Assembly (NCBI GenBank): GCA_000092065.1 | Contig: CP000585.1 | Length of the DNA stretch: 64,000 bases | Direction: 5' to 3' (one strand) | Origin: Ostreococcus lucimarinus | Taxonomy: Eukaryota | In this document: in pieces, positions 1-38,585 of the stretch | Layout of the letters: every line of letters starts with the position of its first letter | How positions within the stretch are numbered: the stretch's first letter is position 1 | Position numbers and translations under genes: made by a program | The notes under the pieces: model-generated | What the model was told of the DNA's origin: nothing | The model's input: only the letters and a program-made list of their open reading frames with translations | Database searches by the model: none

Positions 1-908
1 GACGTCGACCCCGATCCCCCCAGTCACGTGCGTCGCGTTCTTATCCTTGCTCGTGATCGCGAGCGCGTCCAAATTAATTCGTTCTACGAGCGCCACTCGA
101 CTCTCTCCGAAGCTGTACATGGACGCCTCCTCCGCGCTCGTCGACGGCGCCGCGAATCGCGGCACTTCGCACATCACGAGCGCGCTCGACACGTACACGC
201 CCATGCCGGCGTAAGAAACCTCGAACCCTCCGCTCGTCGCCCCTCGCCACTCGCACTCGCGCGCGCGCCCGACGATGTCCGGACTCCCGTCTTTCGGCAG
301 CGCGTTTCGTCCCGTCAGCCTCGACACGTCGCCCTCCGTCGCCACGTGCGGCGACGACCTCGTCAGCACGCCGTTCATCTCGCGAACAAAGTTCACCACG
401 CTCGACATTCCGAGCTCGTGAAACAGCACCGCGTCGACGCCACCGTTCGAGCTCAACCCCAACGCGACGAATCCCTCGCGTCCGCTCGGCGTATCGCACC
501 GCACTCCCGTCGTTCCCGCGATGACGCTCGCGTCGTACGACTCCCCCGGCGACCCCCCGAACACGCATCGCAGCTGTCCCGGCACGCTCGCCGCCGCCGA
601 GCTCCCGGGCGGAAAGTTCAACCCGAACACATCCACCCCTCCCGTCGTTCCGAGCGACGTCGTCGTCGACGGCACGCCCACCGCCAGCAAACCGACGTCC
701 GACGCGTGCGTGTATCCTCGCGCGCCGCGTCCTCGCGCGCGCCACCACGCCGCGCACGCCGCGACCGCGCGCGCGTCGAAGCGCCGTCGCGCGCGCGTCC
801 GCGTCGTCGTCCTCGCCTTCGCTCGCCTCGACCGTCGCGCGTCGTCGACGCGATCGCGCGTCGCGCGCGCGCGTTCGCGCGTCGCCCGCGACCGTTCGTC
901 CCGCGGCA
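1..908 (-). CDS. Partial CDS running off the window start: hypothetical secreted/extracellular protein with IPT/TIG-like repeats. The frame is not in the ORF track.
   Basis: My own translation of the minus strand in a frame absent from the track (it has no stop before position 1) gives ...GVDVFGLNFPPGSSAAASVPGQLRCVFGGSPGESYDASVIAGTTGVRCDTPSGREGFVALGLSSNGG...YSFGESRVALVERINLDALAITSKDKNATHVTGG. The composition is diverse and the codons are GC3-biased like neighbouring genes. The C-x-FGG...C-x-TP spacing resembles an IPT/TIG fold. A possible ATG sits at 908..906 with an R-rich N-terminus. The track ORFs in other frames (28..1368 +, 74..757 -) are R-rich and less protein-like. Confidence 0.4.
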
Positions 909-1380
909 TCGAATCGAATCGAATCGCGCGCGCGTCGTCGTCGTCGCGTCGCGCGTCGTCACCGCGCGCCGTCTCGCGCGTCCGACGCGCGTCGCCGCAT
1001 CGCGCGCGCGCCTCGCGATCGCCGCGGTCGCCGGTCGCGCGCGCGTCCGTGTGCGGGCGCGGCGCCGCGACGTCGCGCGCGAACCGATCGATCGATCGAT
1101 CGATCGATCTCGATCGCGATCGACGCGTCGTCGATCGCGGGTTCGATTCGATCGACGACGCGTCGATCGCGATGGGTTCGATTCGAGCGATCGACGCGCG
1201 CGCGCGATGCCTCGCGATCGCGCGCGATCGCGATCGCGATCGACAGACGACGACGCGACGGACGCGTCGGCGCGAACGACGCGCGACTCGCGCGCGAGGC
1301 ATCGCGCGGGCGATCGCGGCGATCGACGCGGCGCGCGACGCGGCGCGCGACGCGCGGGGACACCGTGAATCGATAATCAT
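780..1380. repeat. GC-rich simple-sequence region (GATCG/CGATCG and GAATC microsatellites) in the intergenic/promoter region
   Basis: Seen directly: cgatcgatcgatcgatcgatc at ~1082-1103, gaatcgaatcgaatcg at ~909-925, and repeated gcgatcgcgatcgcg blocks. It lies between the minus-strand partial gene and the plus-strand gene starting at 1402. Confidence 0.6.
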
Positions 1381-1401
1381 CCACGTGTTCGCATCTTGCG
1401 G

Positions 1402-1595
1402 ATGAGCGCGTCCGTGGCGTCGCCGGAGACGGCGAAGAAACAGCGAGAGGAAGACGCGCAGGCGTTGAAGCGCGCGATGGACGCGGTGGCGAACCCGACG
1501 CGAGTGGAGGCGACGACGGAGACGACGGAGACGACGGAGACGACGGAGACGACGACGAAGGACGCGAGCGAAGAGGCGAAAGAGGACGCGGTGGA

Positions 1596-1633
<38 letters not shown>

Positions 1634-2229
1634 ATGAAACGGAACGACCGCAACAGACGGCGACGGACGAGGACTACGCGCGATTGGATGCGTATTTGAG
1701 TACCGGGTTCGGTTTGGTGCACGCCGACGGGAAAGACGGCGAGGGGCGAACGGTGGTGACGGTGAACGCGACGCGGATTCCGGGCTGGGCCGGCAGCGCG
1801 GATCGCGATAACTCGATGAATCTCATCATCAATACGCTCGAACGCGTGGCGGCGGCTGGGGAGTACGTCGTCGTGGTGTATTTCGGCGACGACGACCGAT
1901 CGAAGGGCGTCGTGCCGACACACTCGCTCAACTGGCTCGGCGACCTCCACGACAAGTTGGCGTACGCGGTGCGGAAAAACGTGCAAAGAATTGTCTTCGT
2001 GAACGCGACGTGGATCATGAGCAGCATCATCTCGTTGACGATGACGTTCGCCACGTCAAAGGCGAGCAAGAAATTCGCGTGGACCAAATCCCTGGACGAC
2101 ATGGACAAGGACACGGGATACAACGTCCACCAAGCGATGTGCGGCGAAAAGTTTCTTGCCTCGGTCGGTAGAAAAGTCGTGTACGCCGAATCCGAAGCCG
2201 CCGCGCCCGCGCCCGCCGCATCGTCGTAA
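1402..2229 (+). CDS. CRAL-TRIO_2/BCH-like domain protein with an N-terminal acidic, T-rich low-complexity region
   Basis: The track ORF at 1396 starts on TTG; the first ATG is at 1402. The C-terminal YVVVVYFGDD...NWLGDLHDKLAYAVRKNVQRIVFVNATWIMSSIISLTMTFATSKASKKFAWTKSLDDMDKD matches the divergent CRAL/TRIO (BNIP-2/Cdc42GAP homology) pattern ...YIVVYFS...[22 protein letters not shown]...KKVIYFNYLSEL. The (GAGACGACG)n and (ACG)n coding repeats at 1499-1633 give (ETT)n and T(13). Confidence 0.55.
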
Positions 2230-5284: not shown

Positions 5285-6168
5285 TCATAACTCGCTCTTC
5301 GCCGCGAGCTCGTCCTTCGCTGCGAGCAGCGCGGCGGCGGTCGCTTGTTGAGTCGACGCGCCCGAGTCTTTCAGTTCGCCAAACGTTTGCGAAATCGATC
5401 GCACCATCTTAGCTATGTCTTCCGACGACGCCGACGCGCTGTTCGCGGTGGCTTTCTGTTTGCGAGGCTTGGCGCCCAAATCCGGCAGTCCGGCGATTTT
5501 CTTCGGCACGGCGTCTTCGACGGCGCCCGGCGCCAAACATTCTCCGAGCGCGCTCGTCCCCGAAGTGTGCCGCATGCGCTGTTCAAACATTCCCAACATC
5601 GGTCCCAACGCTTGACCGATTTCCGTCGACAAGAACACGTCCGGTAAATCCAGAATCTGCTGCGGAATGTCTTTACCGACGAGAAACATCGCCGCCTCCG
5701 AGGTAAAGTTGTTGCAGTTGTGTCTCAATAAATTGTACGTTTCCGACGTGTATCGCGGTTGCACCTCGCGCAAGAAATCGCGAAACATCTCCTCGTCCAC
5801 CTCCGTCGTCCCCAACGCCTCGACGCGCAACGGCGCCCCGAACTGCGTCTGCACGTGCGACGCCGGCGCGCACTGCAAGCCTTGCCCGAACCAATACTCC
5901 TTCCCGTGCACGACGATGCCGGTGTGATACACCGCCTCGATCTCCTTCCCCAGCAACTGCTGCGACATCATTCGCGCCATTCCACCGCTATCGAGCGCGA
6001 GTCGTCGTTTCGTCAGTCACCGCGTCGCCGCCGTCGCGTCGTCCGCGTCGTCGCGTCTTCTAGAAGATGCTTCATCGCGTCGCGTCGCGTCGCGTCGCGT
6101 CGCGTCGTCGCGTCCTCGCGCGCGCACCTCAGGTCGTACACGTGCAACGAGACGTCGTGCGTCGTCAT
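5285..6168 (-). CDS. DeSI-1-like desumoylating isopeptidase (PPPDE peptidase domain), 2 exons
   Basis: Exon 2 (5987..5285) encodes ...MARMMSQQLLGKEIEAVYHTGIVVHGKEYWFG...YNLLRHNCNNFTSEAAMFLVGKDIPQQILDLP, which matches human DeSI-1 (IMLGKQLEGIWHTSIVVH...[25 protein letters not shown]). The missing LYVYDLS N-terminus is supplied by exon 1 (6168..6128: MTTHDVSLHVYDL + AG). Donor GTGCG is at 6127 and acceptor AG at 5988/5989. Joined across the junction the protein reads ...HVYDLSGGMARMMSQQ. Confidence 0.8.
5988..6127 (-). other. Spliceosomal intron (140 nt, GT-AG) of the DeSI-1 gene
   Basis: Donor GTGCGCG, internal GGTGACTGAC branch-like motif ~25 nt upstream of the acceptor TCGATAG. It contains a (CGCGTC)n run. 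Confidence 0.75.
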
Positions 6169-6332
6169 CGCGTCGCGTTCGGGCGCGCTCGACGTTCGTT
6201 ATCCCTCGTCGCGCGAGCGAGTGACGTCGAGTCGGTCGTCGGTCGGCGGCTCGTCTCGACGCGCGATCGCCATCGCGCGACGCGGACGCGCGATACGCGC
6301 ACCGACGCGCGCCGACGTCGAGCTCGACGAGA

Positions 6333-6333
<1 letters not shown>

Positions 6334-6366
<33 letters not shown>
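6334..6366. repeat. (ACG)11 trinucleotide microsatellite 2 nt upstream of the LACS start codon
   Basis: gagacgacgacgacgacgacgacgacgacgacgacgcgATG, seen directly. Confidence 0.8.
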
Positions 6367-6368
<2 letters not shown>

Positions 6369-10019: not shown

Positions 10020-11708
10020 ATGACGGCGCCGAGCGTGAGCAACGGCACGACGCGTTCGCTGATTTGGTTTCGCAAAGCGCTGCGCGTCCACGATAATCCC
10101 GCTCTCGCCGCGGGCATCGCGCGCGCGAAGAGCGCGCAACCGGTGTTCGTGCTCGATCCGTGGTTCTGTAAGCCCTCGCGGGTGGGGGCGAATCGCATGC
10201 GGTTCTTGTTGCAATCGCTGCGCGACTTGGACGCGACGCTGCGAGAACGCGGCAGTTCGCTGCTGGTGCTGCACGGCGAACCGCGAGTGGTGTTGCCGCG
10301 AGCGTGCAAGACGTGGAAGGTTGATTTGGTGACGTGGGAACACGATATCGAACCGTATGCGAAAATGAGAGACACCGCGGTGCGAGGCGCGCTGGAGCGC
10401 GCGGGAGTAGAGTGCGCGTCGTCGAGCGGACACACGCTGTACGACGTGGAGGAGATGTTGGCGAAGTGTCATGGGAAACCACCGACGACGTATTCGCAGT
10501 TTTTGAAGATTGTAGATAAAATGGGTGCACCTGCGGCCGCTTTGGATGCGCCGAAGGCGATGCCGGCGCCGTTCACGGGGACAGCAGAGGAGACGAAGGA
10601 ATTAGTCGCGGGAGTGGCGGATGCGTACGGGATCCCCACTTTGGAGGAGCTCGGTTACGAAGCCATGCATGACGACGAAGGTTTTCAAGCGATCGGAGGT
10701 GAAACCGAAGGCTTGAGACGTCTACGCAGACAACTGTCGCGCACGGAATGGGTGCACACGTTTCAAAAGCCAGATACAAATCCCACGACGCTTTTTCATG
10801 CCTTGGGCGCGAAAAAGCCAAAGCCAAAGAGTCCGTTCGAAATCGCAGCGCGAGACGCGGGAAGCAAAAATGACGCAACAAACACTGCAGCGAATAGTGA
10901 TATGCTGATGACACCGTCCACGACAGCGCTGAGTCCGTACATGAAATTCGGTTGCGTGTCGCCGCGAGTGTTTTATCACGAGCTCAACGCCGTGCTCGCA
11001 AAGTTTGAGGGCAAAGGTCAACCTTCGCAACCGCCGGTGAGTCTCATGGGACAACTGATGTGGCGCGAATTCTACTATCTCGTCGGCGCGGGGACGCCGA
11101 ATTTCGATAAGATGGAAGGAAATCCAATCTGCAGGCAAATTCCTTGGAACAAGGATCGTGAGCTCTTCGCGGCTTGGGAGAACGCGCAAACCGGGTTCCC
11201 TTGGATCGACGCCGCGATGACCCAGCTTCGCCTCGAGGGATGGATCCATCACTTGGCTCGACACGCCGTGGCGTGCTTCCTGACCCGTGGTGATCTATTC
11301 GTGCACTGGGAGTGGGGCAGAGACACGTTCGATCGCGACCTCGTCGACGCCGATTGGGCGCTGAACAACGGCAACTGGATGTGGCTCTCGTGTTCGTGTT
11401 TCTTTTACCAATATTTCCGAGTGTACGGTCCGCACTCGTTCGCGAAAAAGTACGACAAGGACGGCGCGTACGTCAAGCACTACCTCCCCGTGCTGAAGAA
11501 TATGCCCGCCAAGTACGTGTACGAACCTTGGCTCGCCCCTCTCGACGTGCAGAAGAAAGCCGGTTGCGTCGTCGGCGTCGATTATCCCGCTCCGATCGTC
11601 GACCACGCCACGGCGAGCAAGGCGTGCATAGATAAGATCGCCACCGCTTACGCCGCTCACAAGGACGCCACCGCGGTGGCTGGGAAGAAGCGTAAAGCCG
11701 GCGAATAA
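10020..11708 (+). CDS. Cryptochrome/photolyase family: (6-4) photolyase or animal-type cryptochrome
   Basis: N-terminal LIWFRKALRVHDNPAL (photolyase alpha/beta domain). C-terminal WLSCSCFFYQYFRVYGPHSFAKKYDKDGAYVKHYLPVLKNMPAKYVYEPWLAP matches the FAD-binding-domain consensus of (6-4) photolyases (WLSCSSFFQQFF..YCP....DPNGDYIRRYLP.L...PAKYIYDPW.AP). Confidence 0.9.
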   Translation: MTAPSVSNGTTRSLIWFRKALRVHDNPALAAGIARAKSAQPVFVLDPWFCKPSRVGANRMRFLLQSLRDLDATLRERGSSLLVLHGEPRVVLPRACKTWKVDLVTWEHDIEPYAKMRDTAVRGALERAGVECASSSGHTLYDVEEMLAKCHGKPPTTYSQFLKIVDKMGAPAAALDAPKAMPAPFTGTAEETKELVAGVADAYGIPTLEELGYEAMHDDEGFQAIGGETEGLRRLRRQLSRTEWVHTFQKPDTNPTTLFHALGAKKPKPKSPFEIAARDAGSKNDATNTAANSDMLMTPSTTALSPYMKFGCVSPRVFYHELNAVLAKFEGKGQPSQPPVSLMGQLMWREFYYLVGAGTPNFDKMEGNPICRQIPWNKDRELFAAWENAQTGFPWIDAAMTQLRLEGWIHHLARHAVACFLTRGDLFVHWEWGRDTFDRDLVDADWALNNGNWMWLSCSCFFYQYFRVYGPHSFAKKYDKDGAYVKHYLPVLKNMPAKYVYEPWLAPLDVQKKAGCVVGVDYPAPIVDHATASKACIDKIATAYAAHKDATAVAGKKRKAGE

Positions 11709-11795: not shown

Positions 11796-13418
11796 ATGTC
11801 GCTCGAGCGCGAGCGCTTGCTCGATCGCGCGACGTCGAACGCGGCCGCGTCGTCGCGCGATGACAGACGAACGCGCGCTGTTCGTCTCATCGCCACCGCT
11901 TCGTGCGTCGGCGTCGCGACGTACGCGCTCGCGCGCGCCAGCGGGATGATGTTCGCACCGTCGCTCGGTAACACCCAACGCGATTCGCGCTTCGGCGCAT
12001 CGTCCATCGACGCTACCGAGCGAACGGTGCGAGAGTATAAGGACGAATTGTCAATCCTCTCGTGGTCGCACGATCGCGGATTCGAGACGCACAGAGGATC
12101 GTGGAGGCAGGAGGCGCGAAGCGCCGACGCGAACGAGACGCCGGACGCGCCGGCGAAGGACGAGCGCGACGTGTCGAATCGTCAACGAGGGGCGGCAACG
12201 CTGATGGCGCAAACGATCGCAAAGTACATGCCTGGTCGATTATCGGAGACGTCGGCGCCGTTCGAGTTGTTGTACTCGACGTGGGACATGCCGTCGACGC
12301 CGTGCTTGGACGCCGAGTACGCGCAGAAGTTGTGCGAGTTTGATCGATGGGTACCTATATTTAACTTTGGGAGCTCGTTCAAGGATCAAACCGTGCTGCC
12401 GACAATGGTGCCAGCCACGCTCGGCGCGCTTCGTAGTTGTTTCATCGAGGGTTTGAATCCGCATTTAGGCTTTAGCGCGGACGACGAGCCACAGTGCGAC
12501 TTTTTACGCTTCCCGACGACAAAGTATTCCGAGCAAGGAAAGTGCGACGCCAAGCTCGCTCAGTGTCGGTATCACGGATTGTTTTCGCTCAATGCCGTGG
12601 ATGATAAGTCGATGTACGAGTGGGATAATCTCAAACCGCAGGTGGAATGGCGCGGGAGCGACTATTCGTTTCTCGCGCCCCGGGTACCGGGGCACAAGCC
12701 TGACGCGAATGAGTTTTTGAGCGAAATCGCGTCTTCAGCCAATGTTTCGCAGGCCTTACACGATATGGCGTTTTCCACCGATATTGGACCACGTCTCAGG
12801 GCGGTACTGTTTTCAAAGTTGTACCCCGAGCTCATCGACGCCAAGTTTTTCAACTGGAAAAATCAGTCGAGCGCGCGCGACAAGATGGCCGCCGAACTCG
12901 GTATTGACGCCACGGAACGCTTAACTGAAGAGGCGCTGGGCAAATACAAGTATCATCTCGACCTCGGCGGTGGTGGAGGGACGACGTGGAGCGGACTGAT
13001 TCCCAAACTCACCATGCCGGGCGTGCTGTTGCACCACGAGACGTCGATGAAGGATTCGTACTTTGACACTCTGAAGCCGTGGGTGCACTACGTGCCCGTC
13101 GCAGAAGACCTACACGACGTTTTTGAGAAGATTTCTTGGTGCGAAACGCACCCCGAGGAAGCACGAAATATCAGCGCCAACGCCAACGACTGGGTTCGCG
13201 ACTTCCGAGGCTTGAAATCGCTGCTTCGTCACAACTATCAAGCCCTGGCGATTCCCTTGGCGAAAACGCTCGATCCCTCTGGCGAGACGCTGCTAGACTT
13301 TGAAGCCGCGCACGTGGCCGCGCGCGCCGAGCGCCTGGCCGCGCGCGCCGCAAAACTCGCCATCAAAGCGTCCAGAGACGCCGCCAAAGCCGCGAAGGCC
13401 ACCAACGTTTCCGATTAA
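11796..13418 (+). CDS. GT90-family glycosyltransferase (CAP10 domain; Rumi/POGLUT1 protein O-glucosyltransferase-like), type-II membrane topology
   Basis: KYKYHLDLGGGGGTTWSGLIPKLTMPGVLLHHETSMKDSYFDTLKPWVHYVPVAEDLHD aligns with Rumi/POGLUT1 [30 protein letters not shown]...LKPWVHYIPVKTDLSN, and WRGSDYSFL lies upstream. The N-terminal TM segment is CVGVATYALARA. Confidence 0.8.
   Translation: MSLERERLLDRATSNAAASSRDDRRTRAVRLIATASCVGVATYALARASGMMFAPSLGNTQRDSRFGASSIDATERTVREYKDELSILSWSHDRGFETHRGSWRQEARSADANETPDAPAKDERDVSNRQRGAATLMAQTIAKYMPGRLSETSAPFELLYSTWDMPSTPCLDAEYAQKLCEFDRWVPIFNFGSSFKDQTVLPTMVPATLGALRSCFIEGLNPHLGFSADDEPQCDFLRFPTTKYSEQGKCDAKLAQCRYHGLFSLNAVDDKSMYEWDNLKPQVEWRGSDYSFLAPRVPGHKPDANEFLSEIASSANVSQALHDMAFSTDIGPRLRAVLFSKLYPELIDAKFFNWKNQSSARDKMAAELGIDATERLTEEALGKYKYHLDLGGGGGTTWSGLIPKLTMPGVLLHHETSMKDSYFDTLKPWVHYVPVAEDLHDVFEKISWCETHPEEARNISANANDWVRDFRGLKSLLRHNYQALAIPLAKTLDPSGETLLDFEAAHVAARAERLAARAAKLAIKASRDAAKAAKATNVSD
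12824..13117 (+). repeat. 294-nt tract 100 % identical to 14570..14863 in the tandem paralog (gene-conversion tract); a second 39-nt identical tract sits at 13170..13208 = 14916..14954
   Basis: Direct comparison of the two gene sequences. Identity begins at ccccgagctcatcgacgccaag and ends at gaagacctacacga, with flanks diverged on both sides (e.g. gtacc vs gcacc just upstream). The two identical tracts are separated by ~50 nt of unrelated sequence. Confidence 0.85.
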
Positions 13419-13529
13419 CCCCCGTTCCGCGCTGTATCAACAGTATCAACACCATCCGTCCACCAGCCGCGCGACGCTCCGTTTTCAAGCCTCCGCCATC
13501 GATCGCTCGACGCGCCACACGCGCGCGCG

Positions 13530-15209
13530 ATGCTCGGTCGCGCGCGCGATGACGTCGCCGAGCGCGCGGCACTCCTCGACGTCCCCGACGCCCCGTCGTC
13601 GTCGCGCGTCGCCGACGTCGACGTCGACGTCGACCGACGCGCGCGCGCGGGACACCAACACCCAAGCGCTTCGCCCGTGTTTCGCTCGCGAGTGCTCGGG
13701 TTCGCGTGCGCGTTCATCCTCGTCGCGTGCGCGTCGCGCGTGGGAAACGTTCCCCTGAGACTGCGACCGCCGATCGAGAAGCGCACGGCGCGCACGGTGA
13801 AAGAGTACGGACACGAGGGGGAGTTGCACTTGCTGCGCTGGACGTCGGCGGGTGGATTCGAAGCCGTCGAGTTGGGTCAGTCGACGGATGGCGTCAAGCA
13901 GCGCGCGGTGGAGGCGGTGAAGGTGATGATTGAAACGATAAAGAGGTATTACCCGCATCGGCTCGAGGATGGGCGGAATCCGTTCGAGTTGCTTTTCGAA
14001 GTATCGGACAAGCCGTCGACGCATTGCGTGTCCGCGCAGGCGAAGTGCGCGACGAGAGCGTGGGCACCGATATATGCGTTCGGTAGCGTGCCGAAAAACG
14101 TCGAGCACGTGTTACCGACGATGATTCACGCGCCCTTGGTTCCGCTCGCGTCTTGTTACACTGAGAACATCGCGACGTACAACGTGTCCATGAGTGGGCT
14201 TGACGCTGAGACGACGTCGTGCCCGTTTCTGAATTACCCGACGAAAAAGTATAGCGAGTTGGCCAAGTGTGATCCGGACGGCGATGTGAGCGGACAAGCT
14301 GCGTGTACGCCATACGCCCACGGATTATTTTCGCTCGACGCCGTGGAGGACAAGTCGTTGTACGAATGGAACTCGTTGGTTAACAAAGTCTTTTGGAGAG
14401 GGAGCGATTACGCGTTCTTGACGCCGTCGTACCCGGATTTTGCCTCGACGTCCGAAAACTTTTTGCCATGGTTGATGGAAGAGGCGAACAAAATGAAAGC
14501 GATGAAGATGTTGTTGCGAAATAGTGACGTCGGTCCGCGCTTTAGGGCGGTTCTGATGTCGAAGTTGCACCCCGAGCTCATCGACGCCAAGTTTTTCAAC
14601 TGGAAAAATCAGTCGAGCGCGCGCGACAAGATGGCCGCCGAACTCGGTATTGACGCCACGGAACGCTTAACTGAAGAGGCGCTGGGCAAATACAAGTATC
14701 ATCTCGACCTCGGCGGTGGTGGAGGGACGACGTGGAGCGGACTGATTCCCAAACTCACCATGCCGGGCGTGCTGTTGCACCACGAGACGTCGATGAAGGA
14801 TTCGTACTTTGACACTCTGAAGCCGTGGGTGCACTACGTGCCCGTCGCAGAAGACCTACACGATCTTGCTGAACGCGTGCGATGGCTCGAAACCCATCCG
14901 ACCGCGGCGCAGCGCATCAGCGCCAACGCCAACGACTGGGTTCGCGACTTCCGACGCCTGCGATCGCTCTTGGCGTACAACTATCGCCTTCTCGCAGTTC
15001 CGCTGTCGCTCTCCCTCGACGCCAAGCCGTTACCGTTATTTGCACCCTCCGCGAGCGTCCAAGCGACGAAATCCGAAGCCGAAGCCATCGACGCTGACCT
15101 CGCGTCGCCGCAACATCGCGCCGCCGTCGCCGCCGCCGGCGCGTCTCGCCGCCGTCGCGCGTCGGCTCGCCCCGCGGCGCGCGACACCCCCCGCGCGCCG
15201 TCGCTCTAG
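13530..15209 (+). CDS. GT90-family glycosyltransferase, tandem paralog of 11796..13418
   Basis: Same domain order as the upstream gene: TM helix VLGFACAFILVACA, a conserved PFELL...DKPSTHC block, WRGSDYAFL, and a C-terminal block identical at nucleotide level to the upstream paralog (see the repeat feature). It ends in an A/R-rich tail. Confidence 0.8.
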   Translation: MLGRARDDVAERAALLDVPDAPSSSRVADVDVDVDRRARAGHQHPSASPVFRSRVLGFACAFILVACASRVGNVPLRLRPPIEKRTARTVKEYGHEGELHLLRWTSAGGFEAVELGQSTDGVKQRAVEAVKVMIETIKRYYPHRLEDGRNPFELLFEVSDKPSTHCVSAQAKCATRAWAPIYAFGSVPKNVEHVLPTMIHAPLVPLASCYTENIATYNVSMSGLDAETTSCPFLNYPTKKYSELAKCDPDGDVSGQAACTPYAHGLFSLDAVEDKSLYEWNSLVNKVFWRGSDYAFLTPSYPDFASTSENFLPWLMEEANKMKAMKMLLRNSDVGPRFRAVLMSKLHPELIDAKFFNWKNQSSARDKMAAELGIDATERLTEEALGKYKYHLDLGGGGGTTWSGLIPKLTMPGVLLHHETSMKDSYFDTLKPWVHYVPVAEDLHDLAERVRWLETHPTAAQRISANANDWVRDFRRLRSLLAYNYRLLAVPLSLSLDAKPLPLFAPSASVQATKSEAEAIDADLASPQHRAAVAAAGASRRRRASARPAARDTPRAPSL

Positions 15210-15422
15210 TCCTAGAACACCGTCCGTTAGTTTATCACGCACCACTTCGTTCATCGCGCGCGTCGCTTTCGCGCCCGCTCGCGGCCGTCTCCTTCTTCTC
15301 TCCTCTCCTCTCTTCGCGCGTCCGCGGCGGCTCGCGGTCCCGGTCCTTCTCAAGATGTCCCGCCCGATCGACGCCCACTTCGATCGGCATCGCGCGACGC
15401 GCGCGTGGACGTTGGACGCGCG

Positions 15423-16541
15423 ATGCGACGCCGCGCGCGCGAGTCGACGCGCGGTGCGTTCGCGTGCGTTCTGTTCGCGCTGCTCGCCGCGGTGTGCGCG
15501 CGCGCGAGCGATTACTACGCCGCGCTCGGCGTGTCGCGCGGCGCGGAGGAGTCCCAGATCAAGCGCGCGTACCGAAAGCTCGCGCTGAAGTACCACCCGG
15601 ATAAGAACCCGAACGACGAGCGCGCGAAGAAAAAGTTCACGGAAATCTCGCAGGCGTACGAGGTGCTGAGCGATAAGGAGAAGCGGTCGATATACGATCG
15701 GTACGGCGAGGACGGGGTGAAGCAACACGAACAGAGCGGCGGACGAGGCGGCGGCGGGGCGCAAGATATCTTTAGTCAGTTCTTCGGCGGCGGTGGACCG
15801 TTCGGAGGATTCGGGGGATTCGGAGGAGAACAGGAAGAACCGGAAACGCCGAAAGGGACGACGATTAAGGTTGATTTGGGGATGACGGTGAAGGAAATTT
15901 ATCTCGGGGCGACGGCGCCGGTGACGCGGGAAAAGTTGGTGACGAAGAGCGCGAGAGGGACGAGGAAGTGTAACTGCCGACAGAAGCTCGTGACGCGACA
16001 AGTCGGACCGGGGATGTATCAGCAGTACACCGAGCAAACGTGCGAGGATTGCCCGAACGTTAAATTGGTGCGCGAGCGCGCGGATCTAAAAGTCGAGGTC
16101 GATGCGGGCGCCCCCGTCGGGCACGAAATTCTATTTTTTGAAGAAGGCGACGCGATGATCGATGGCGACCCCGGAGATTTGCTCTTCGTCGTGCAAACTT
16201 TGGAGGATAAAGAGAACAGGATCACGCGCGTCGGTAAGAGCGATTTGCACATGACGTACGAAATTACCCTCGTCGAGGCGCTCAACGGATTTTCTAAAAT
16301 CTTCAAGCACTACGACGGCCACGACGTCGTCATCGCTCGAACCGGGGTGACGGTACCTTTCGACAAAATGACGCTCAAGGGCGAAGGCTTGCCGAAGCAC
16401 AATCAATTCAAAAAGTTCGGTGACATGTTCATCACGTTTCAAGTCCAGTTCCCGGCGTCGTTGGACCAGAAGCAACGCGACGTCGTCTCGAAGACGTTCG
16501 CCTCGTCGAAATTTGTCGAGGTCGGCAAAGTGGTCGTATAA
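15423..16541 (+). CDS. DnaJ/Hsp40 co-chaperone, ER-lumenal ERdj3/DNAJB11-like (signal peptide + J domain + G/F region + Cys-containing substrate-binding domain)
   Basis: The track start at 15405 is GTG; the ATG is at 15423. Predicted signal peptide [17 protein letters not shown], then [55 protein letters not shown] (J domain with HPD), GGFGGFGG, and a CxC...C...CxxC cluster. Confidence 0.85.
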
Positions 16542-31302: not shown

Positions 31303-32610
31303 TTACTCGGAAGGGGCTTCGATCGGCGCTTGGTCGACGGCGGGCTTCGTTTCGTTGACGAGATTTTCGGCGCCGTCGACGATCTTCATGGAGATGATCT
31401 CGTCGTCGACCTTGAGATCGCGCAGGAGCTCTTGGTTCTCGACGACGTAACCGAAGATGGAGTAGCGACCGTCCAAAATGTTGGTGCCGGACGGCGTGAG
31501 TTCGGATTCGCGAAGGAGGAAGAAGAACTGGGACGACGCCGAGTTCGGTTCCGCTTCGCGACGCGCCATCGCGAGCGTACCGAACGCGTTGAACGGCAGC
31601 ACCGGCTGGTCGCGGTAACGGCCGAGTTCCTCCAGCGTCAACTCGTATTCCGGCACCTTGTCGCCTTGCACCATGATTTCCAGAGGAACCGTGCGCTCGA
31701 CGCCGCCAAGCTTGAAACCGTCACCGCCCTTCGGCTTACCGCTTTGTACGACGAAACCATCGGAGCGCTGGATCGGCATCTTGTCGTAAAAACCCAAGTT
31801 GATCAAATCGGCAAAGTTACCCGCGCTCACCGGGGCGTTGTAACCGTCGAGGACGATCTTCAACACGCCGCCATCCGTGTTCGCGTTGTCCTTGATTTTC
31901 ACCAGCATGTCCACCGTCGCCCGACCCTTCAACAACGGCCTGTCCGCGTATTGCGCGGGGACGTCAAATGGGAAACCATCAATCATATCTTCCTCGATGC
32001 GACCGACGAGCGAGAGCGCCTCTTGTTGCTGCAACGGCACCTCTTGCTTGTCCTTTTGAGCGACGATGACTTGGAAATCCGTCAACACACTCTCGAGCTC
32101 TTTCAATGCCTGCTCACCGTCCGCCTTCTTCCCCGACGCGAGAGCCTCAACGATCTTACCGCGTTGCTCCTTGACAATCTTCAAAGAGCCGTTCACGCTC
32201 GATTCGACGCCGGAGAATTTCACTCCCGGCACGCGCAAGTCGTCGCTGATGCTCTCGAGCTTCTTCTGAATGGCGCGAATCGGCTTATTGCTCACCGGCA
32301 ACGCGTTTCGCAACAGCGCCTTGGCGTTCGTGATGGGATTCGCTTCCAATCCAGCGACTTGGCCGATCTCCATCGGCGTCACCGGCGACGCGAACGCTTC
32401 CAGAGTCGGCGCGGAGACGCACGCCGTCGCGGCGATCGCCATCAAACTCTTCGCGATCGATTTCGCCGCGCTCGGGGCGTCTTCGCCCGCAGCGTGCGCG
32501 CGCACGACGGTCAACGCGCTTTGCTTGCGCGTGTTGACTGTTTTCGCGCGCAAAGCGCGCGCTGGGCGCGCGCACGCGCGTCCGATGGTGGGTGACGTCG
32601 ACCCCGGCAT
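31303..32610 (-). CDS. Thylakoid-lumen peptidyl-prolyl isomerase CYP38/TLP40-like (N-terminal helical domain + cyclophilin domain) with plastid transit peptide
   Basis: A green-type S/T/R/A-rich transit peptide. The C-terminal cyclophilin-like block is LKIVLDGYNAPVSAGNFADLINLGFYDKMPIQRSDGFVVQSGKPKG...FGTLAMARREAEPNSASSQFFFLL...LDGRYSIFGYVVEN. Overall length and N-terminal helical region are as in CYP38. Confidence 0.85.
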   Translation of the reverse strand: MPGSTSPTIGRACARPARALRAKTVNTRKQSALTVVRAHAAGEDAPSAAKSIAKSLMAIAATACVSAPTLEAFASPVTPMEIGQVAGLEANPITNAKALLRNALPVSNKPIRAIQKKLESISDDLRVPGVKFSGVESSVNGSLKIVKEQRGKIVEALASGKKADGEQALKELESVLTDFQVIVAQKDKQEVPLQQQEALSLVGRIEEDMIDGFPFDVPAQYADRPLLKGRATVDMLVKIKDNANTDGGVLKIVLDGYNAPVSAGNFADLINLGFYDKMPIQRSDGFVVQSGKPKGGDGFKLGGVERTVPLEIMVQGDKVPEYELTLEELGRYRDQPVLPFNAFGTLAMARREAEPNSASSQFFFLLRESELTPSGTNILDGRYSIFGYVVENQELLRDLKVDDEIISMKIVDGAENLVNETKPAVDQAPIEAPSE

Positions 32611-33466
32611 TTTGGATAAAGTCGTCCTTTACGAGCGTCCACCAACGCGCTGAGTCGCACGAACGCGCTCGGGCGCGACGAAAAGCGCGTCGAAGCGAGT
32701 TTCCGTCTTCGGAGTCGTGCTGCGACGAGCGCGCGCGAATGTGCGGTCGCCCCGCGCGCGCGCCGCGGTTTTCGCAAACTATCGGCTACTCTAACGCTAC
32801 AAACTCTAGACGCGCGCGTCGTCACCTGCGCCCGGCGGGCTCGCGATACGCCCTATTCGCGCGATACAACGCGTAGATTTCATCCCCTCCGATCGACGCG
32901 TCCGTCGGGCGGCTGCCCAGTCCCGCGCGCGCGGGTCCGTCTGTCTCGCGCGCGTTCGCCGTCGGCGCCGCGCGCGTCGGCGCCGCCGCCGTCCCCGCCC
33001 GACCGCGTTCCGACGCCCGCGCGCGCTCATCGTGCTCCAACATCGATTTCGCCGACGCCGAGGCGTCGTATCCGCGCACGTCGCGATCGAACCGCTCGAG
33101 TCGACGCTCGACGTACGCTCGCGGCGGTTCCCGCGCCGCCCTCGTCGTCGTCGCCTCCACCGCGCGGTACAGCCCCGCGACGCCCGCGTTCGCGCGTCGC
33201 GCGCGCATCGCGAGCGTCCCGACCGCCGTTCCCGTCCCGCGCGTCTCGCGCGTCGTCGCGCGCGCGTCGAGATCGATCTCGTTCGCGTCGCCCGCGCCCG
33301 AGTCTCGCGCGTCGTCCCGCGCGCGCGCCCCGAGCGCCGCCGCGATGCGCTCGGCGCGCCTGCGCGCCTCCTCCACCATCGCGCTCGCGGGCGCGGGCTC
33401 CATCGCGCGCGGCGCGTCGCCGCGTCGCCGCGTCGTCGGCGCGCTGTGTCGACGCCGTGTCATTTC

Positions 33467-34198
33467 ATGTCGCGCGCGTCGCGGCTCGTCTCGCTCGCCC
33501 CGCGCGCTCGCGTCGCGCGCCGACGCGCGACGCGCGCGATGGCGGGACCGCCGACGCCCGCGCGACCGCTCGGGCGCGTCGCGCGCGGCGCGGCGACGGC
33601 GAGGGTGAAGATCGACGCGTGGTTGGACTTTGCGTGCCCGTTTTCGGGACGGTTTTGGAGAAACTGCACGGCGGCGTGGGCGAGTTACGACGGGAAAGCG
33701 GACGTCGCGATCGTCGTGTACAATCAACCGCAACCGTGGCACGCGCAGAGCGCGCTGGCGCACGAGGTGTCGTTGGGGGTGGAACGACTGCGCGGCGAGG
33801 ACGCGTTCGTCGCGTTTTGCGAGGCGGCGTTTAGCGAGAAAAACTGGGACAAGTTCACGGATAAGTTCACGGAAAAGATGACCAAGGGGGAGATGTACGA
33901 TTTGTACGTCGACGTCGCGCGCGAGGCGATGACGGGCGCGATGGGCGCGGACGCCGCGGCGTCGACGGCGGGCGAAGTGCGAAAACTTTTGGAATTGGAC
34001 GCCGAGGCGTTGGCGCGCGGGGAGAAGAATCCGGGCAACGCGATGACGCAGCAGTTGAAGTTTTACGTCAAACTCGGACGGCAAACGGGCGTGCACGTGT
34101 CGCCGAGCGCGTACGTGAACGGACTGTTCGCGGATACCTCGAGCGGGTGGAGCGAGAGCGAGTGGCACGCGTTTTTCGACGCCGCGCGTGGCAAGTGA
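33467..34198 (+). CDS. DsbA-like thioredoxin-fold protein (CxxS active-site variant)
   Basis: RVKIDAWLDFACPFSGRFW... is a DSBA-family N-terminal CPxS motif within a beta-alpha fold; C-terminal VHVSPSAYVNGL resembles the cis-Pro region. The start is uncertain (ATG 33467 or ~33540). The track ORF start 33032 lies in the antisense of an A/R-rich region. Confidence 0.65.
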   Translation: MSRASRLVSLAPRARVARRRATRAMAGPPTPARPLGRVARGAATARVKIDAWLDFACPFSGRFWRNCTAAWASYDGKADVAIVVYNQPQPWHAQSALAHEVSLGVERLRGEDAFVAFCEAAFSEKNWDKFTDKFTEKMTKGEMYDLYVDVAREAMTGAMGADAAASTAGEVRKLLELDAEALARGEKNPGNAMTQQLKFYVKLGRQTGVHVSPSAYVNGLFADTSSGWSESEWHAFFDAARGK

Positions 34199-34281
34199 GC
34201 GCAGCGATCATCGCGCCGCAGCTTCTCGTCAGTCTTAGCGAATGCCTTTTAAACTCTAATTACAGACAAAGCGAGATAACA

Positions 34282-35024
34282 TCACGGATCCTCTGACTTT
34301 TCTTCGTTCGCCTCGGCGGCGTCGCGTTCGGCGAGCTCCGCCTTGGCCTGGTCGAGCAGATCCTTGCCGTCGAAATAATCCAGCGTCTTTTGTCCGGCGA
34401 GCGCGATCAATCCGACGCCGTTCGCCGCGTACACGAACGTGGCCAAGTACGTCAGCCCCTCGACGATCGTGCGCACGGTGATGGAAATTTGTCGCACCGT
34501 CTCGCTCTCCGGCAGCGCCTTCCCGTCGAACGACGCGCTCACCTTGGACGCGAACGCGTACAGCACGACAGAGATCCCGATCCCCGTCAAACCTCCGGTA
34601 AAACTCTGCATCGCCGTCAGCTCTTTCGTCTTCTTCGCGCGCTCTTCGTCGATTTTCGCTCGTTCCTCCTCCGGCAACCTATTCGCCACGCGAAACTCCC
34701 TCGCCTTCCCGCTTCGCTTCTGCACCGCGCGCGCAAAGTACCAGAACGAAAACCCCGTGAACAGGACGCCGAACACGTTCTGCAGCGGCGTCGCCTCTTC
34801 CGTGGGCACGCCGTACGAGTCGTACACCCCCGCGACGGCGACGCCGCCGTCGACCGCCGCGACCCACGCCGCCGCCGCCGCCGCGCGCGCCGTCGCCGTC
34901 GCCGTCGCCCGCCCTCGCGCGCGCGCGTCCGCGTCCGCGCGCGCGACGCCGTTTCTCGCGTCACCGTCCTCGTCCGCGCGCGTCGTCGTCGTCGTCGCCG
35001 TCGTCGCGCGCGTCGTCGTCCTCA
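34282..35024 (-). CDS. Hypothetical membrane protein (3 predicted TM helices, T/A-rich N-terminus)
   Basis: The ATG at 35024 opens MRTTTRATTATTTTT.... TM candidates are LQNVFGVLFTGFSFWYFARAV, LTGIGISVVLYAFASKV and LTYLATFVYAANGVGLIALAG, followed by an acidic C-terminus. The upstream 300 codons of the track ORF 34282..35949 are an R-rich antisense of the SR gene and are not included. Confidence 0.45.
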
Positions 35025-35214
35025 TCTTTCGTTCGCCGTCGCCGCGCGTCGCCGTCCACCGTCGCGTCGCGCGCGCGCGTCGCGCCGCGGGCGCCGCGCG
35101 CGCGCGCGCGCGCGCGCCCGTCCGCGCCCGCATCGCCCCGTCTCGCGTTCGCGCGCGCGTGTGCGGCGCGCCCGCGCGGCGCCGCGTCACATCGAGTCGC
35201 GCCGTCGTCGATCG

Positions 35215-36240
35215 ATGTCGCGCGACGCCGACGCGCGCGGGCGCGCGGTGTACGTCGGGAACCTGCCGCTCGACGCGTCGTCGCGCGACGTCGACCGACG
35301 GTTCGCGGCGCACGGCGTCGTGGCGCGCGTCGAGGTCAAGCGACCGCGACATCCGCCGGCGTTCGCGTTCGTGACGTTCGACGACGCGCGCGACGCCGAG
35401 CGCGCGGCGCGGGCGGAGGACGGGACGACGTTCGATGGGAGACGCGTGCGCGCGGAGCTGGCGCGGGGACGACGGGACGGCGGGAGGGAGAGGGAGAGGG
35501 AGAGGGAGAGGGAGGCGCGCGGCGACTGGGACCGCGGCGACCGGGACGACGGCGACGGGCGCGATAGATACGCGGGACGGATGCGAAGCGATCGAGAGGG
35601 GCCGTACGATCGACCGCGATGGCGCGATGGCGCGGACGCGCGATCGATGGTGCGGGAGCGCGCGGCGACGCGAAAGACGGAGCATTCGGTGAAGGTGGAG
35701 GATTTGCCGCGAGGCGCGGATTGGCGAGACGTGAAGGACGCGTTTCGACGCGCGGGACGGGTGACGTACGCGAGCACGTTCGTCGATCGCGATGGACGGA
35801 GGTGCGCGGAGGTACACTTTGAGAGCGCGGACGACGTCGAACGAGCGATCGACGCGTTCGACGATAGGGAGTTTGAGATTTCCGGCGGCGCGCGCGAGTA
35901 CGTGCGGGTGTTTCGTCGAGCGCCGAGACGTCGTCGAGAGGGCGGGCATCGACCGCGGAGTTACTCGCGCGAGCGGTACTCCGATGACCGCGTCCGGCGC
36001 GCGCGAAGTCGCAGCCGTAGCTTCAGCCGTAGCTTCAGCCGGTCGCGCAGCCGCAGTCGCGACGAACGCGACGACGGCCCGTCGCGGAGCCCGTCGCCCG
36101 AAATCATCGAGCGACGCCGCTCGCGCAGCAGAACGCCGTCGCGGCGCGACGACGATTCGCCTCGGCGCGGGCGGTCGCCCACGCCGCGGGGCGCGCGATC
36201 GCGCGAGCCCTCATTCGACGACCTCGCGGCGAACGATTAA
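35215..36240 (+). CDS. SR splicing factor, SRSF1 (ASF/SF2)-like: RRM + pseudo-RRM + RS domain
   Basis: RRM1 RAVYVGNLPLDASSRDVDRRFAAHGVVARVEV...AFAFVTFDDARDAERA. Pseudo-RRM with the SWQDLKD-type signature (ADWRDVKDAFRRAGRVTYA). C-terminal RSRSRS/SPRR repeats. The ATG is at 35215; the long upstream track ORF from 34390 is an artefact. Confidence 0.85.
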   Translation: MSRDADARGRAVYVGNLPLDASSRDVDRRFAAHGVVARVEVKRPRHPPAFAFVTFDDARDAERAARAEDGTTFDGRRVRAELARGRRDGGREREREREREARGDWDRGDRDDGDGRDRYAGRMRSDREGPYDRPRWRDGADARSMVRERAATRKTEHSVKVEDLPRGADWRDVKDAFRRAGRVTYASTFVDRDGRRCAEVHFESADDVERAIDAFDDREFEISGGAREYVRVFRRAPRRRREGGHRPRSYSRERYSDDRVRRARSRSRSFSRSFSRSRSRSRDERDDGPSRSPSPEIIERRRSRSRTPSRRDDDSPRRGRSPTPRGARSREPSFDDLAAND

Positions 36241-36273
36241 CGAACGATTCAATTTCTAAAATTCTTCACAAAA

Positions 36274-36885
36274 TCACTTCATCTTTTCAATCGCCGCTCG
36301 ACAGTCGACGCTCGCGCCGCGTCCTTTCCCTCGCTCGAACGCCTCGAGCACGCGCCAAATCAACGCCTCGTACTCATCCTCTAAAAACTCCCCATCCTCC
36401 GTCACGAACTCTTCGCACCGCACGTCGCATCGCACCGCGTCCTTCGCCTCGCACTTCCCGTCGCTCTTCGCGCTCACGATCACCTCGAGCGTCTCCGCCA
36501 GTCGCGCGCACCGCACGTGCACCGTCAGCCCATCCTTCGACCGTTCGTTTCTCGCCCACGCCGCCGGTTCGCGTCCATCGCAATCCACCCCTCGCGCTCG
36601 CGTCAGCAGCAGCGCGTCTCGCTCCGCGTACTTCGCCACGCACGGCGCCCCGCACGCCAGCGCCCCGTACGCCGCCGCGCACGCCCATCGCGTCGCGTCG
36701 TTCGTCATCGTCACCGCGTGCGCCGCGCACGCCGCGCCGATCGCCGCGATCGACAGCGCGATCTTCGCGTCCACCGTGCGCGTGTCCTCGTCGTAGCCCG
36801 CGTCGAGGACCGCGCACACCGTCGCGTCGTCGTACGCGCGCCGCACCGCGACGTGGTCGTACACGTTCGAGATCGGCGTCGCCAT
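36274..36885 (-). CDS. Hypothetical protein
   Basis: An ATG-initiated 203-aa ORF with diverse composition (MATPISNVYDHVAVRRAYDDATVCAVLDAGYDEDTRTVDAKIALSIAAIG...EEFVTEDGEFLEDEYEALIWRVLEAFERGKG). No family recognised. Confidence 0.4.
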   Translation of the reverse strand: MATPISNVYDHVAVRRAYDDATVCAVLDAGYDEDTRTVDAKIALSIAAIGAACAAHAVTMTNDATRWACAAAYGALACGAPCVAKYAERDALLLTRARGVDCDGREPAAWARNERSKDGLTVHVRCARLAETLEVIVSAKSDGKCEAKDAVRCDVRCEEFVTEDGEFLEDEYEALIWRVLEAFERGKGRGASVDCRAAIEKMK

Positions 36886-37121
36886 CGCGCGTCGCGGTCG
36901 CGATCGAGCGTCGCGATTTCGGGGTCGCGCGCGTCGTGCGCAGCGCGCGTCGCGCGGCGCTCGCGCGCGTCGTCGCGCGCGCGCGTGTGCGGGACGGCGT
37001 CGAACGCGTTCGCGACGCCATCGCGCGCGTCCCGCACACGCGCGCGCGGCGTCGCGCTCGATCGCGCTCGATCGCGCTCGATCGCGCGCCGCGACGCGGC
37101 GTCGAACGCGGCGCGCGCGCG

Positions 37122-38585
37122 ATGGCGCGCGAGCGACGCAGGGACGACGTGACGCTGCCGCGAGCGACGAAACTCGCGCTGATTCGCTTCCCGGGATACG
37201 TCGACGACGTCGACGCGTGCGAACGGATGCTGGGCGGACGCGCGGCGCTGTCCGAGGCGTGCTTTCCGAGAGAAACCTCGCGGCGACGCGCGGCGGGAGG
37301 GCGCGCGACGTCGGAGGACGGCGCGACGACGGGGCGACGACGACGGGACGGCGGGCGGTTGGAGCTGCGATTCGCGAACGCGAACGCGAACGCGAAGGCG
37401 AAGGCGAACGGGCGTCGGTCGGTGGCGTACGGCGAACGAAGGGAGACGCGGTCGATCGTGTTGAAAATGACGGAACGCGCGGACGCGAACGGCGGGACGA
37501 GGACGGAGGTGGAGGCGATCGGGTTGGCGCGGCGAGTGTTTTTGTTTCGAGGCGCGGCGGATTTCGGACGACGAAACGAGGGACGAGACGACGACGCGGG
37601 ACGACGGGACGCGGTTGACGGGGTGAAGTGGTTGAAGGATGCGAAGGGAGGGGCGAACGATCCGTTCGAGCTCGGGAACGAGGGCGATGGGGGGGTCGGG
37701 GGGATGGGCGCGACGTCGCTGCGGCCGCCGTTGTACACGCGAGACGACATTCCCGTGGCGAATTATTTTGAGCAAAACGATACGGGGGCGACGACGACGC
37801 GGGAGGTTGATTTCCACGAGATCGCGGTGCCTACTCGAGGTTTGGCGATGGAAGACGCCTCGAGCGCGGCGGTGAGCGCGATGCGGGCGTTGATGGAAGA
37901 GAGAGACGTTTGGGCGCCGCTCGCGGCGTTGGCGCGTCTGCCGAAATCGTTGGCGGACGAAATCGTTTCGCGAAAGCTTCACGCGACGACGTGTTATCAG
38001 TTCTCGAGCGGGCCTTTTAAGAAGTCGTGGATTAAAGTCGGCGTCGACCCGCGATTTGATAGGACGTACGTGCGTCATCAAACCGTGACGCTTCGATTAC
38101 CCGCGAATTGGTTTCGGGACGACGACGAAGAGGGCGCGCGTCGCAAAGAGCGATTCTCCCTCAGCTCGCGCGCCGATCGCGGATATCACGCCGCCATTCA
38201 CGGGTTTCGAGCGATACCGGACGCGAGACACCCAGTCTTATCGCTCGCTGATATCGATCTGCCGAGCGTGCGCGCCGCGGTGGAACGCGCGGCGACGTGC
38301 GAGGACCCGCCGAGCGCGTGCGACGAGCGTCGCGGCTGGCTATCCGCCGCGCTTCATCGCAAGATCCAGCGCGCCATACTTCGCGGCTACCAAACATTGC
38401 TGAACGGTGGTGACCCGATCGCCGTCGACGAAGCCTCGATGGCCGACGCGGACGACGCCGCGGTGGACGACGATTTCATCGCGAACGACGCCGCCGCGCC
38501 CAAAGTCGCCGCCGACGACGACGAAGGCGACGAGTACGAAATTCTCGCCGGCGACGATGATTCCGGCGACGACGACATCGCGTAG
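37122..38585 (+). CDS. General transcription factor IIIC subunit 5 (tau95/Sfc1-like)
   Basis: N-terminal LALIRFPGYVDDVDACERMLGG matches GTF3C5 VCVEYPGVVRDVAKMLPTLGG. The central TTCYQFSSGPFKKSWIKVGVDPRFDRTYVRHQ matches ITGPWRSLWIRFGYDPRKNPDAKIYQ. The C-terminus is acidic (DDDEGDEYEILAGDDDSGDDD), as in tau95. The ATG is at 37122. Confidence 0.7.
   Translation: MARERRRDDVTLPRATKLALIRFPGYVDDVDACERMLGGRAALSEACFPRETSRRRAAGGRATSEDGATTGRRRRDGGRLELRFANANANAKAKANGRRSVAYGERRETRSIVLKMTERADANGGTRTEVEAIGLARRVFLFRGAADFGRRNEGRDDDAGRRDAVDGVKWLKDAKGGANDPFELGNEGDGGVGGMGATSLRPPLYTRDDIPVANYFEQNDTGATTTREVDFHEIAVPTRGLAMEDASSAAVSAMRALMEERDVWAPLAALARLPKSLADEIVSRKLHATTCYQFSSGPFKKSWIKVGVDPRFDRTYVRHQTVTLRLPANWFRDDDEEGARRKERFSLSSRADRGYHAAIHGFRAIPDARHPVLSLADIDLPSVRAAVERAATCEDPPSACDERRGWLSAALHRKIQRAILRGYQTLLNGGDPIAVDEASMADADDAAVDDDFIANDAAAPKVAADDDEGDEYEILAGDDDSGDDDIA

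Follow-up and report, generated by a model that had tools for sequence, protein, structure and literature searches.

Two old tandem GT90 glycosyltransferase genes of Ostreococcus lucimarinus with a donor-binding core very probably homogenised by recurrent gene conversion

Interlocus gene conversion with partial concerted evolution is known in the human HBG1/HBG2, RHD/RHCE and red/green opsin genes. Here we describe a tandem pair of genes in the picoalga Ostreococcus lucimarinus CCE9901, located in a stretch of 64,000 nucleotides (nt) of contig CP000585.1 (assembly GCA_000092065.1) that is called the window and to which all positions refer. The paralogs A (11796..13418; an open reading frame, ORF, of 540 amino acids, aa) and B (13530..15209; 559 aa) lie on the same, plus, strand and belong to glycosyltransferase family GT90. 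We propose that they are old tandem paralogs whose donor-binding core has, very probably, been homogenised recurrently by interlocus gene conversion. That tandem paralogs evolve partly in concert is textbook knowledge, and the locus is a new, clean example of this and not a surprise. A literature search yielded no earlier description of conversion at the GT90 A/B locus.

GT-B enzymes bind the nucleotide sugar with their C-terminal domain and mostly the acceptor with their N-terminal domain (N-domain). In POGLUT1, Arg218 binds the phosphates of uridine diphosphate (UDP), and a turn at 272-279 (RGVAASFR), with Phe278 and Arg279, binds glucose and phosphate (PMC5543122). The GT90 family also includes the fungal Cryptococcus beta-1,2-xylosyltransferases Cap10 and Cxt1 and the Xanthomonas pisi apiosyltransferase XpApiT (PMC6193724); A and B share the CAP10/GT90 domain with these enzymes, which act on polysaccharide or glycolipid and not on epidermal growth factor (EGF) domains. 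Because GT90 spans several UDP-sugars and non-Notch substrates, membership of the family says little on donor or acceptor.

Both genes are already present in public annotation as 'predicted protein / CAP10 domain-containing protein'; A corresponds to XP_001417652.1 and B is an exact match to XP_001417653.1 (UniProt A4RWX5). An initial annotation of the window, made from the sequence, had rightly pointed to a Mamiellales green alga and had described two adjacent same-strand CAP10/GT90 genes, and this agrees with the ORFs and with Pfam PF05686 (Glyco_transf_90) scores of 46.4 bits for A and 64.3 bits for B, above the gathering cut-off of 24, in matches that span only profile positions ~174-316 of 396. 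The two proteins are 51% identical over 517 residues. In the N-domain the genes differ at ~48% of nucleotides and synonymous divergence (dS) is saturated at ~1.5, so the earlier statement that most of the sequence has diverged is borne out.

Two blocks depart from this divergence, both at a constant A/B offset of 1746 nt. Tract 1 covers 12823..13117 in A (codons 344-440, PELIDAKF...VAEDLH) and 14569..14863 in B (codons 348-444), both on the plus strand, and is an exact match of 295 nt, synonymous sites included; the identity reported in the initial annotation was correct, and its length of 294 nt was not, the block starting at 12823/14569. An alignment check for scattered synonymous differences inside the block found 0 differences in 295 nt. 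Block 2, at 13170..13208 in A (plus strand, codons 459-471, ISANANDWVRDFR) and 14916..14954 in B (plus strand, codons 463-475), is exact over 39 nt, just as had been described. The two blocks are separated by 52 nt that are specific to each paralog and were never converted, at 13118..13169 in A (plus strand, DVFEKISWCETHPEEARN) and 14864..14915 in B (plus strand, DLAERVRWLETHPTAAQR). A separator of about 50 nt is thus present, but it is not unrelated sequence as first supposed: it is homologous, in frame and of equal length in A and B, with 29 differences in 54 codon-aligned nt, and is conserved among the orthologs of each paralog.

When the matches and mismatches along the A/B codon alignment were shuffled 10,000 times, the longest identical run had a mean of 13 nt and a maximum of 32 nt, compared with the 295 nt observed. 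Outside the blocks, just 48% of codons for the same residue use the identical codon in A and B. At that rate, the chance of identity at all 91 degenerate codons of tract 1 is ~8e-30, and at all 12 degenerate codons of block 2 ~1.5e-4.

Related loci were recovered by protein search and contig look-ups. The O. lucimarinus reference window (W) was compared with three other Ostreococcus lineages, labelled S3 (L013-L016), S2 (L001-L006) and S4 (L021). All four have the gene order AMP-binding enzyme, hypothetical gene, photolyase, GT90, GT90, DnaJ. S3 is closely related to O. lucimarinus (dS 0.11-0.12 in the flanking genes), and S2 and S4 are near each other (ortholog dS 0.27-0.35) and far from O. 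lucimarinus (dS >1). The N-domains of A and B are separated by a dS of 1.3-1.8 in every genome, against an ortholog dS of 0.08-0.35. Outside the core, every comparison (N-domain tree and distance matrices, four lineages) pairs A with A and B with B, and the A/B duplication is therefore older than the split of the sampled Ostreococcus lineages.

Inside the core, for which 174 nt (KYKYH..DLH) were compared, the relationships are reversed. The two W copies have 0 differences and the two S3 copies have 1. W and S3 differ from each other at 9-10 sites; only one of these is not a third codon position, and none alters an amino acid. In S2 and S4 the core paralogs have a dS of 0.34 and 0.18, respectively, versus 1.3-1.5 in their N-domains, and the core dS of S2/S4 to the W/S3 clade is 0.7-1.7. 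Core copies in one genome are thus identical or nearest each other, yet the lineages differ at synonymous sites. In S3 the homologous position also has an exact A/B block, of 149-179 nt, whose sequence differs from that of W. When states are polarised with the other lineages, derived states occur in both W copies at alignment columns 469, 508 and 518 and in both S3 copies at columns 485 and 494. Because these lineage-specific derived states sit in both copies, copying occurred in W and in S3 after their split; the core has been homogenised independently in the sister lineage and in the more distant lineage pair. Marks of gene conversion seen here are paralogs closer inside the tract, orthologs closer outside it, synonymous identity, and lineage-specific changes in both copies.

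The same comparison bears on the idea that purifying selection on the nucleotide sequence itself, through an embedded RNA, a regulatory element or extreme codon constraint, keeps the two tracts identical without any copying. Tract 1 does encode the part of the protein that is best conserved across the family. However, W and its sister lineage carry the 9-10 silent differences between them although the copies are identical within each genome, and the tract's 5' half, while identical between W_A and W_B, shows poor protein conservation across orthologs. There were zero Rfam matches on either strand. We regard selection of this kind as exceedingly improbable.

Other observations concern the wider family. 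L017 (4269-9053), a fifth, Ostreococcus-like lineage, has a single GT90 gene between photolyase and DnaJ that is A-type throughout (P0012, 561 aa), which implies either a loss of B in this lineage or a later origin of the tandem arrangement; the comparison of copy number at orthologous loci, which the initial annotation had recommended, thus gives a tandem pair in four lineages and a single A-type gene in this one. More distant relatives of the B clade (P0031) lie in another genomic context, and a further contig holds two GT90 genes 4.4 kb apart, beside a gene resembling NAD-dependent sugar epimerases/dehydratases (L018:6001-7533; L020:151-1635 and 6001-7650). Between W and the sister lineage (L013/L016 6001..9463), DNA divergence is 5-14% in the GT90 genes and 1-5% in the flanking genes. 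Gene A has a dS of 0.25 versus 0.11-0.12 for photolyase and DnaJ. The B N-domain has a low dS (0.075) and a ratio of nonsynonymous to synonymous divergence (dN/dS) of ~1.2, compared with 0.18 for A. Evolution of the paralogs and their neighbours is uneven and in part accelerated.

The direction of transfer can be read from the mosaic structure. S3 keeps distinct A-type and B-type sequence in the 5' half of tract 1 (PELID..ALG), and there the W sequence has 18 differences to S3_B versus 32 to S3_A. Because it is of the B type, B was the donor and A the recipient in O. lucimarinus, at least for this half. Block 2 is the same in all four W and S3 copies except for one base, and it is B-like, resembling the B type of S2 and S4. 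This indicates an older transfer from B to A, preceding the W/S3 split. Only W has the 5' extension; the 3' end of tract 1 nearly coincides in W and S3. From the alignments, then, there were several separate conversion events with different end points. The 52-nt segment is saturated between paralogs and unconverted in every lineage examined; orthologs differ in it by 0 (W_A/S3_A), 2 (S2_A/S4_A), 4 (W_B/S3_B) and 2 (S2_B/S4_B) nt. Along with this segment, the acceptor-side N-domain and the tails are free of conversion.

The reference was also compared with 16 environmental contigs of the same species, 6 with the tandem pair and 10 further ones. Five of the 6 tandem contigs hold both copies in full, and the remaining one (L011) is cut off inside the A copy. 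The block and its flank (~4.8 kb) contain 17 substitutions, one of which is inside the tract. At position 12874 in A (plus strand, Ala360) and 14620 in B (plus strand, Ala364), the reference has C in both copies and 16/16 environmental contigs have A (Glu), in both copies where both are present. Since the same allele is found in both copies, a change born in one copy has passed to the other since the haplotypes separated, and conversion is recent and recurrent. The earlier claim of recent, patchy gene conversion of the catalytic core is upheld by this shared polymorphism and by the concerted core in four lineages. Published mutation rates of Mamiellophyceae are 4.4-9.8e-10 per site per generation (PMC5455958). 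With 0 differences in 2 x 295 nt, these rates place the last homogenisation within ~5e6 to 1e7 generations if all sites are neutral, a rough bound that holds to an order of magnitude and rises a few-fold if only silent sites are counted.

A single, one-off replacement in O. lucimarinus, with nothing ongoing, would be enough for the window alone, where one event per block explains the pattern. It would leave several results unexplained: the separate homogenisation in S3 and in S2/S4, the derived substitutions fixed in both copies of W and S3, and the sharing of block 2 by W and S3 from before their split alongside a 5' extension of tract 1 found in W only. The coupled Ala/Ala versus Glu/Glu polymorphism needs a further, within-species event. 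A one-off origin is therefore given very little probability.

Environmental contigs also contain fusions of the two genes. An A/B chimera (P0106, 555 aa; also P0109 and P0114) follows A through the block and then B; fusions of this type occur on at least 11 contigs (L022-L031), lack 13118..14863, and show the locus as photolyase - one GT90 - DnaJ. A reciprocal B/A chimera (P0090, 544 aa) lies on a 4.7-kb scaffold (L032:1-4755) in which the repeat is traversed twice. Its layout is A, spacer, a hybrid of B 5' part, block and A 3' part, spacer and a B 5' fragment, followed by unrelated sequence with a NAD-binding-like ORF. Haemoglobin Lepore-type genes are fusions that arise from unequal crossing-over, and the P0106 structure is likewise what would be expected from an exchange inside the block with the loss of one 1746-bp unit; unlike Lepore genes, the algal hybrids are most likely products of short-read assembly. 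The fusion ORFs are quite probably mis-traversals of the 295-nt repeat by short-read assemblers, because they have no private flanking single-nucleotide polymorphisms (SNPs), one flank haplotype is shared by tandem and hybrid forms, and L032 is chimeric. A real deletion allele was considered and is judged the less likely reading, as the hybrids carry no private flanking SNPs and the reciprocal hybrid is on a visibly chimeric scaffold.

The hybrids could also be taken as real intermediates of unequal crossing-over, in which a deletion to a hybrid gene was followed by re-duplication. Their number, their recovery from several samples and assemblers, always in the order photolyase - one GT90 - DnaJ, and the existence of a reciprocal B/A form would fit this proposal. 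Crossing-over, however, would homogenise one whole side of the gene; the homogenised part here is an internal patch, with 5' and 3' parts that are paralog-specific and orthologous across lineages. The sharing of flanks between tandem and hybrid forms tells against it as well, and the sole reciprocal hybrid is on a mis-traversed scaffold ending in unrelated DNA. We consider this origin very unlikely.

The behaviour of the repeat in assemblies raises the question of whether the identity itself is an artefact, in which two similar segments were merged by the assembler or consensus and written to both copies. Short-read assemblers do mishandle the repeat, as seen in at least 10 contigs that skip the 1746-bp unit and in the scaffold that traverses it twice; in addition, the MEGAHIT contig L011 begins with the last 127 codons of A, ~90 nt inside the A-copy block. 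The O. lucimarinus reference, however, was presumably sequenced by Sanger reads, and a block of 295 nt with diverged flanks is shorter than such a read, so that each copy would be anchored in unique sequence. S3 has an A/B-identical tract of its own with a different sequence, in contigs that are likely long-read assemblies (Flye-like names, frameshifted gene calls). Collapse is impossible in S2 and S4, which are without a long exact repeat and in which the core paralogs are still much closer (dS 0.18-0.34) than the sequence outside (1.3-1.5). Finally, the polymorphic site reads A in 16/16 environmental contigs and C in none of them. An artefact is thus highly improbable.

The protein B was modelled with AlphaFold2 (predicted local distance difference test score, pLDDT, 80.8; predicted template modelling score, pTM, 0.77). 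The model has a disordered N-terminal tail, a hydrophobic helix at 53-71, a short stem and a two-domain body; A has a hydrophobic stretch at 31-48 comparable to the B helix. The body is predicted to fold as a GT-B enzyme of two domains, and the solved structures nearest to it are those of GT90 enzymes, with a PDB profile hit at 2e-21. In the model, tract 1 covers strands E351-355, E388-393, E414-418 and E436-439, the intervening helices and a Gly-rich loop, and would thus form the central beta-sheet of the C-terminal, Rossmann-like donor-binding domain. Tract 1 holds the invariant residues D393, G396, G398-T400, P412-G413, H417-H418, D424, H435 and P438. On these predictions, A and B are taken to be membrane-anchored GT90 glycosyltransferases.

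The numbering of the human POGLUT1 sequence used here agreed at 14/14 residues named in PMC5543122. With a 65-sequence profile, hhalign placed B 287-480 on POGLUT1 165-355 (probability 98.9), and HMMER aligned the same C-terminal span only. The B copy of tract 1 aligns to POGLUT1 ~228-320, which holds the 272-279 sugar/phosphate contacts (PMC5543122). Identity to POGLUT1/Rumi and POGLUT2 (PDB 5L0R, 5F84, 9W47) is ~15-20%. The algal P336-R337, invariant in 65 homologs, aligns to P216-(E)-R218, so that R337 of B corresponds to Arg218, and the algal LKPWVHYVPV aligns to LKPWVHYIPV of POGLUT1, which is the Rumi-type LKPWVHY[IV]PV core that had been recognised from the sequence. In contrast, the RGVAASFR turn is replaced in the algal proteins by an invariant Gly-rich GGGGGTTWSG, so that Phe278 is matched by Gly, and Arg279 by a variable position with Leu or Thr. 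The EGF-contacting residues of POGLUT1 are Phe104, the Ala172/Trp174/Pro178 loop and Gln240; the counterpart of Gln240 is a variable Lys, and the orthologs differ in the segment around it.

POGLUT1 is a soluble protein of the lumen of the endoplasmic reticulum, with a signal peptide and KTEL/KDEL; the algal proteins instead have a predicted N-terminal membrane anchor, and a KDEL-like C-terminus is absent from both (they end in ...KATNVSD and ...PRAPSL). The algal N-domain is not alignable by sequence to that of POGLUT1, which holds the catalytic base Asp133 and most EGF contacts, and residues 104-133 fall in this unalignable part; a single-sequence PDB search with the algal N-domain gave chance matches only (Tob1, GAPDH). 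D160 of B, an invariant Asp after strand 152-157, is a candidate for the equivalent of Asp133 by position only. Because the turn is replaced, the membrane topology differs and the N-domain cannot be aligned, an EGF O-glucosyltransferase function is not to be assumed; we call A and B GT90 glycosyltransferases and do not describe their function as that of a Rumi-type EGF O-glucosyltransferase. The description of the pair as Rumi/POGLUT-like is accordingly kept for family and fold and dropped for function. Literature searches yielded nothing on EGF repeats of the C-X-S-X-(P/A)-C type as acceptors in Ostreococcus and no enzymology or function of algal GT90 proteins. A search for a link to viruses gave no relative in IMG/VR, and the fold matches in BFVD were generic CAP10/GT90 domains of unrelated giant viruses.

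Several observations were made on the N-terminal parts of the two proteins. The RefSeq model of A (XP_001417652.1) starts at Met51 and has 490 aa, leaving out window 11796..11945 and with it the conserved N-terminal tail (M..ERE.LLD) and the hydrophobic anchor (~31-48). The full 540-aa N-terminus is kept in the orthologs S3_A and S2_A and in metagenome gene calls. In B, codons 31-74 (13621..13750) contain five differences between the reference and all environmental contigs in 130 nt (D31G, P49R, V55M, I63V, V74A), all of them non-synonymous and none synonymous, at a density ~15x the locus average; the cluster falls in the cytosolic tail and membrane helix. A VDVDVD stretch in the N-terminal tail of B derives from a short imperfect tandem repeat with a period of 22-28 at 13580..13639.

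As to mechanism, the pattern is observed, and we infer from it how the repair proceeds and why the tracts end where they do. The C-terminal core segment is repeatedly overwritten from the neighbouring copy 1.7 kb off, very probably by non-reciprocal homologous repair. Strong protein constraint on the donor module would keep the copies alike enough for strand invasion upon break repair, and each conversion would restore perfect homology and so make the next one easier. Conversion may be halted at the N-domain, the 52-nt helix segment and the tails by heteroduplex rejection, by selection against losing paralog-specific residues, or by both. It is hypothesized that A and B most likely use one nucleotide-sugar donor on two acceptors in the secretory pathway, on the grounds that their donor modules are identical and their N-domains diverged.

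Some points weigh against this account. The exact identity in CCE9901 rests on a single reference assembly, and the short-read metagenome assemblies that repeat it are a weaker confirmation, because de Bruijn graphs can merge near-identical repeat copies. GC-biased conversion was not seen, the G+C content at third codon positions (GC3) of the O. lucimarinus tract being 0.74 versus 0.72-0.76 elsewhere in the genes. The boundaries may reflect a limit of homology or selection, and the proposal of one donor and different acceptors draws on general GT-B architecture. A different, adaptive account is unlikely overall. It holds that core-restricted concerted evolution, kept up in at least four Ostreococcus lineages, is no mere side effect of sequence similarity and is favoured, since both enzymes need an identical donor module, for the same nucleotide sugar or partner, while their acceptor domains diversify quickly, and that the exact repeat is also a hotspot that yields real A/B fusion alleles in the wild. 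The dN/dS of ~1.2 of the B N-domain between close lineages is a pointer to such fast diversification of the acceptor domain, and the cell-surface glycans of these algae are plausible virus-contact structures.

The pair is flanked by a photolyase/cryptochrome gene upstream (10020..11708, plus strand; PF00875, PF03441) and by a DnaJ gene (ERdj3/DNAJB11-like) downstream (15405..16541, plus strand; PF00226, PF01556), which are neighbours in all related loci and served as synteny anchors. The spacer between A and B (13419..13529) is 111 nt long in the reference and 122 nt in same-species environmental contigs. No third copy of the GT90 gene was found within the 64-kb window. The G+C content is 0.68-0.69 at window positions 1..2000 and 32001..38000, versus a window average of ~0.61.

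The locus leaves the current understanding of gene conversion and of GT90 enzymes unchanged. What it adds is direct evidence, at the level of the sequence, that neighbouring genes undergo ectopic homologous repair on within-species time scales in a haploid picoalga whose sexual cycle is not known to have been observed. In practical terms, an exact repeat of 295 nt misleads short-read metagenome assemblers and has probably placed false fusion proteins in public collections. For the two enzymes, the pattern suggests a hypothesis of a shared donor module with two acceptor modules.

The closest parallels are the human pairs named at the outset. As in HBG1/HBG2, RHD/RHCE and the opsin genes, the algal paralogs lie on the same strand a few kb apart and share an identical internal tract between anciently diverged flanks; as there, copies within a genome are closer than orthologs, the most constrained region is the one affected, and the process recurs across lineages. 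Unlike the human cases, it takes place in a picoalga that is haploid and rarely sexual and has a very compact genome, and the tract corresponds to a single structural module of an enzyme with two domains, namely the donor-binding sheet.

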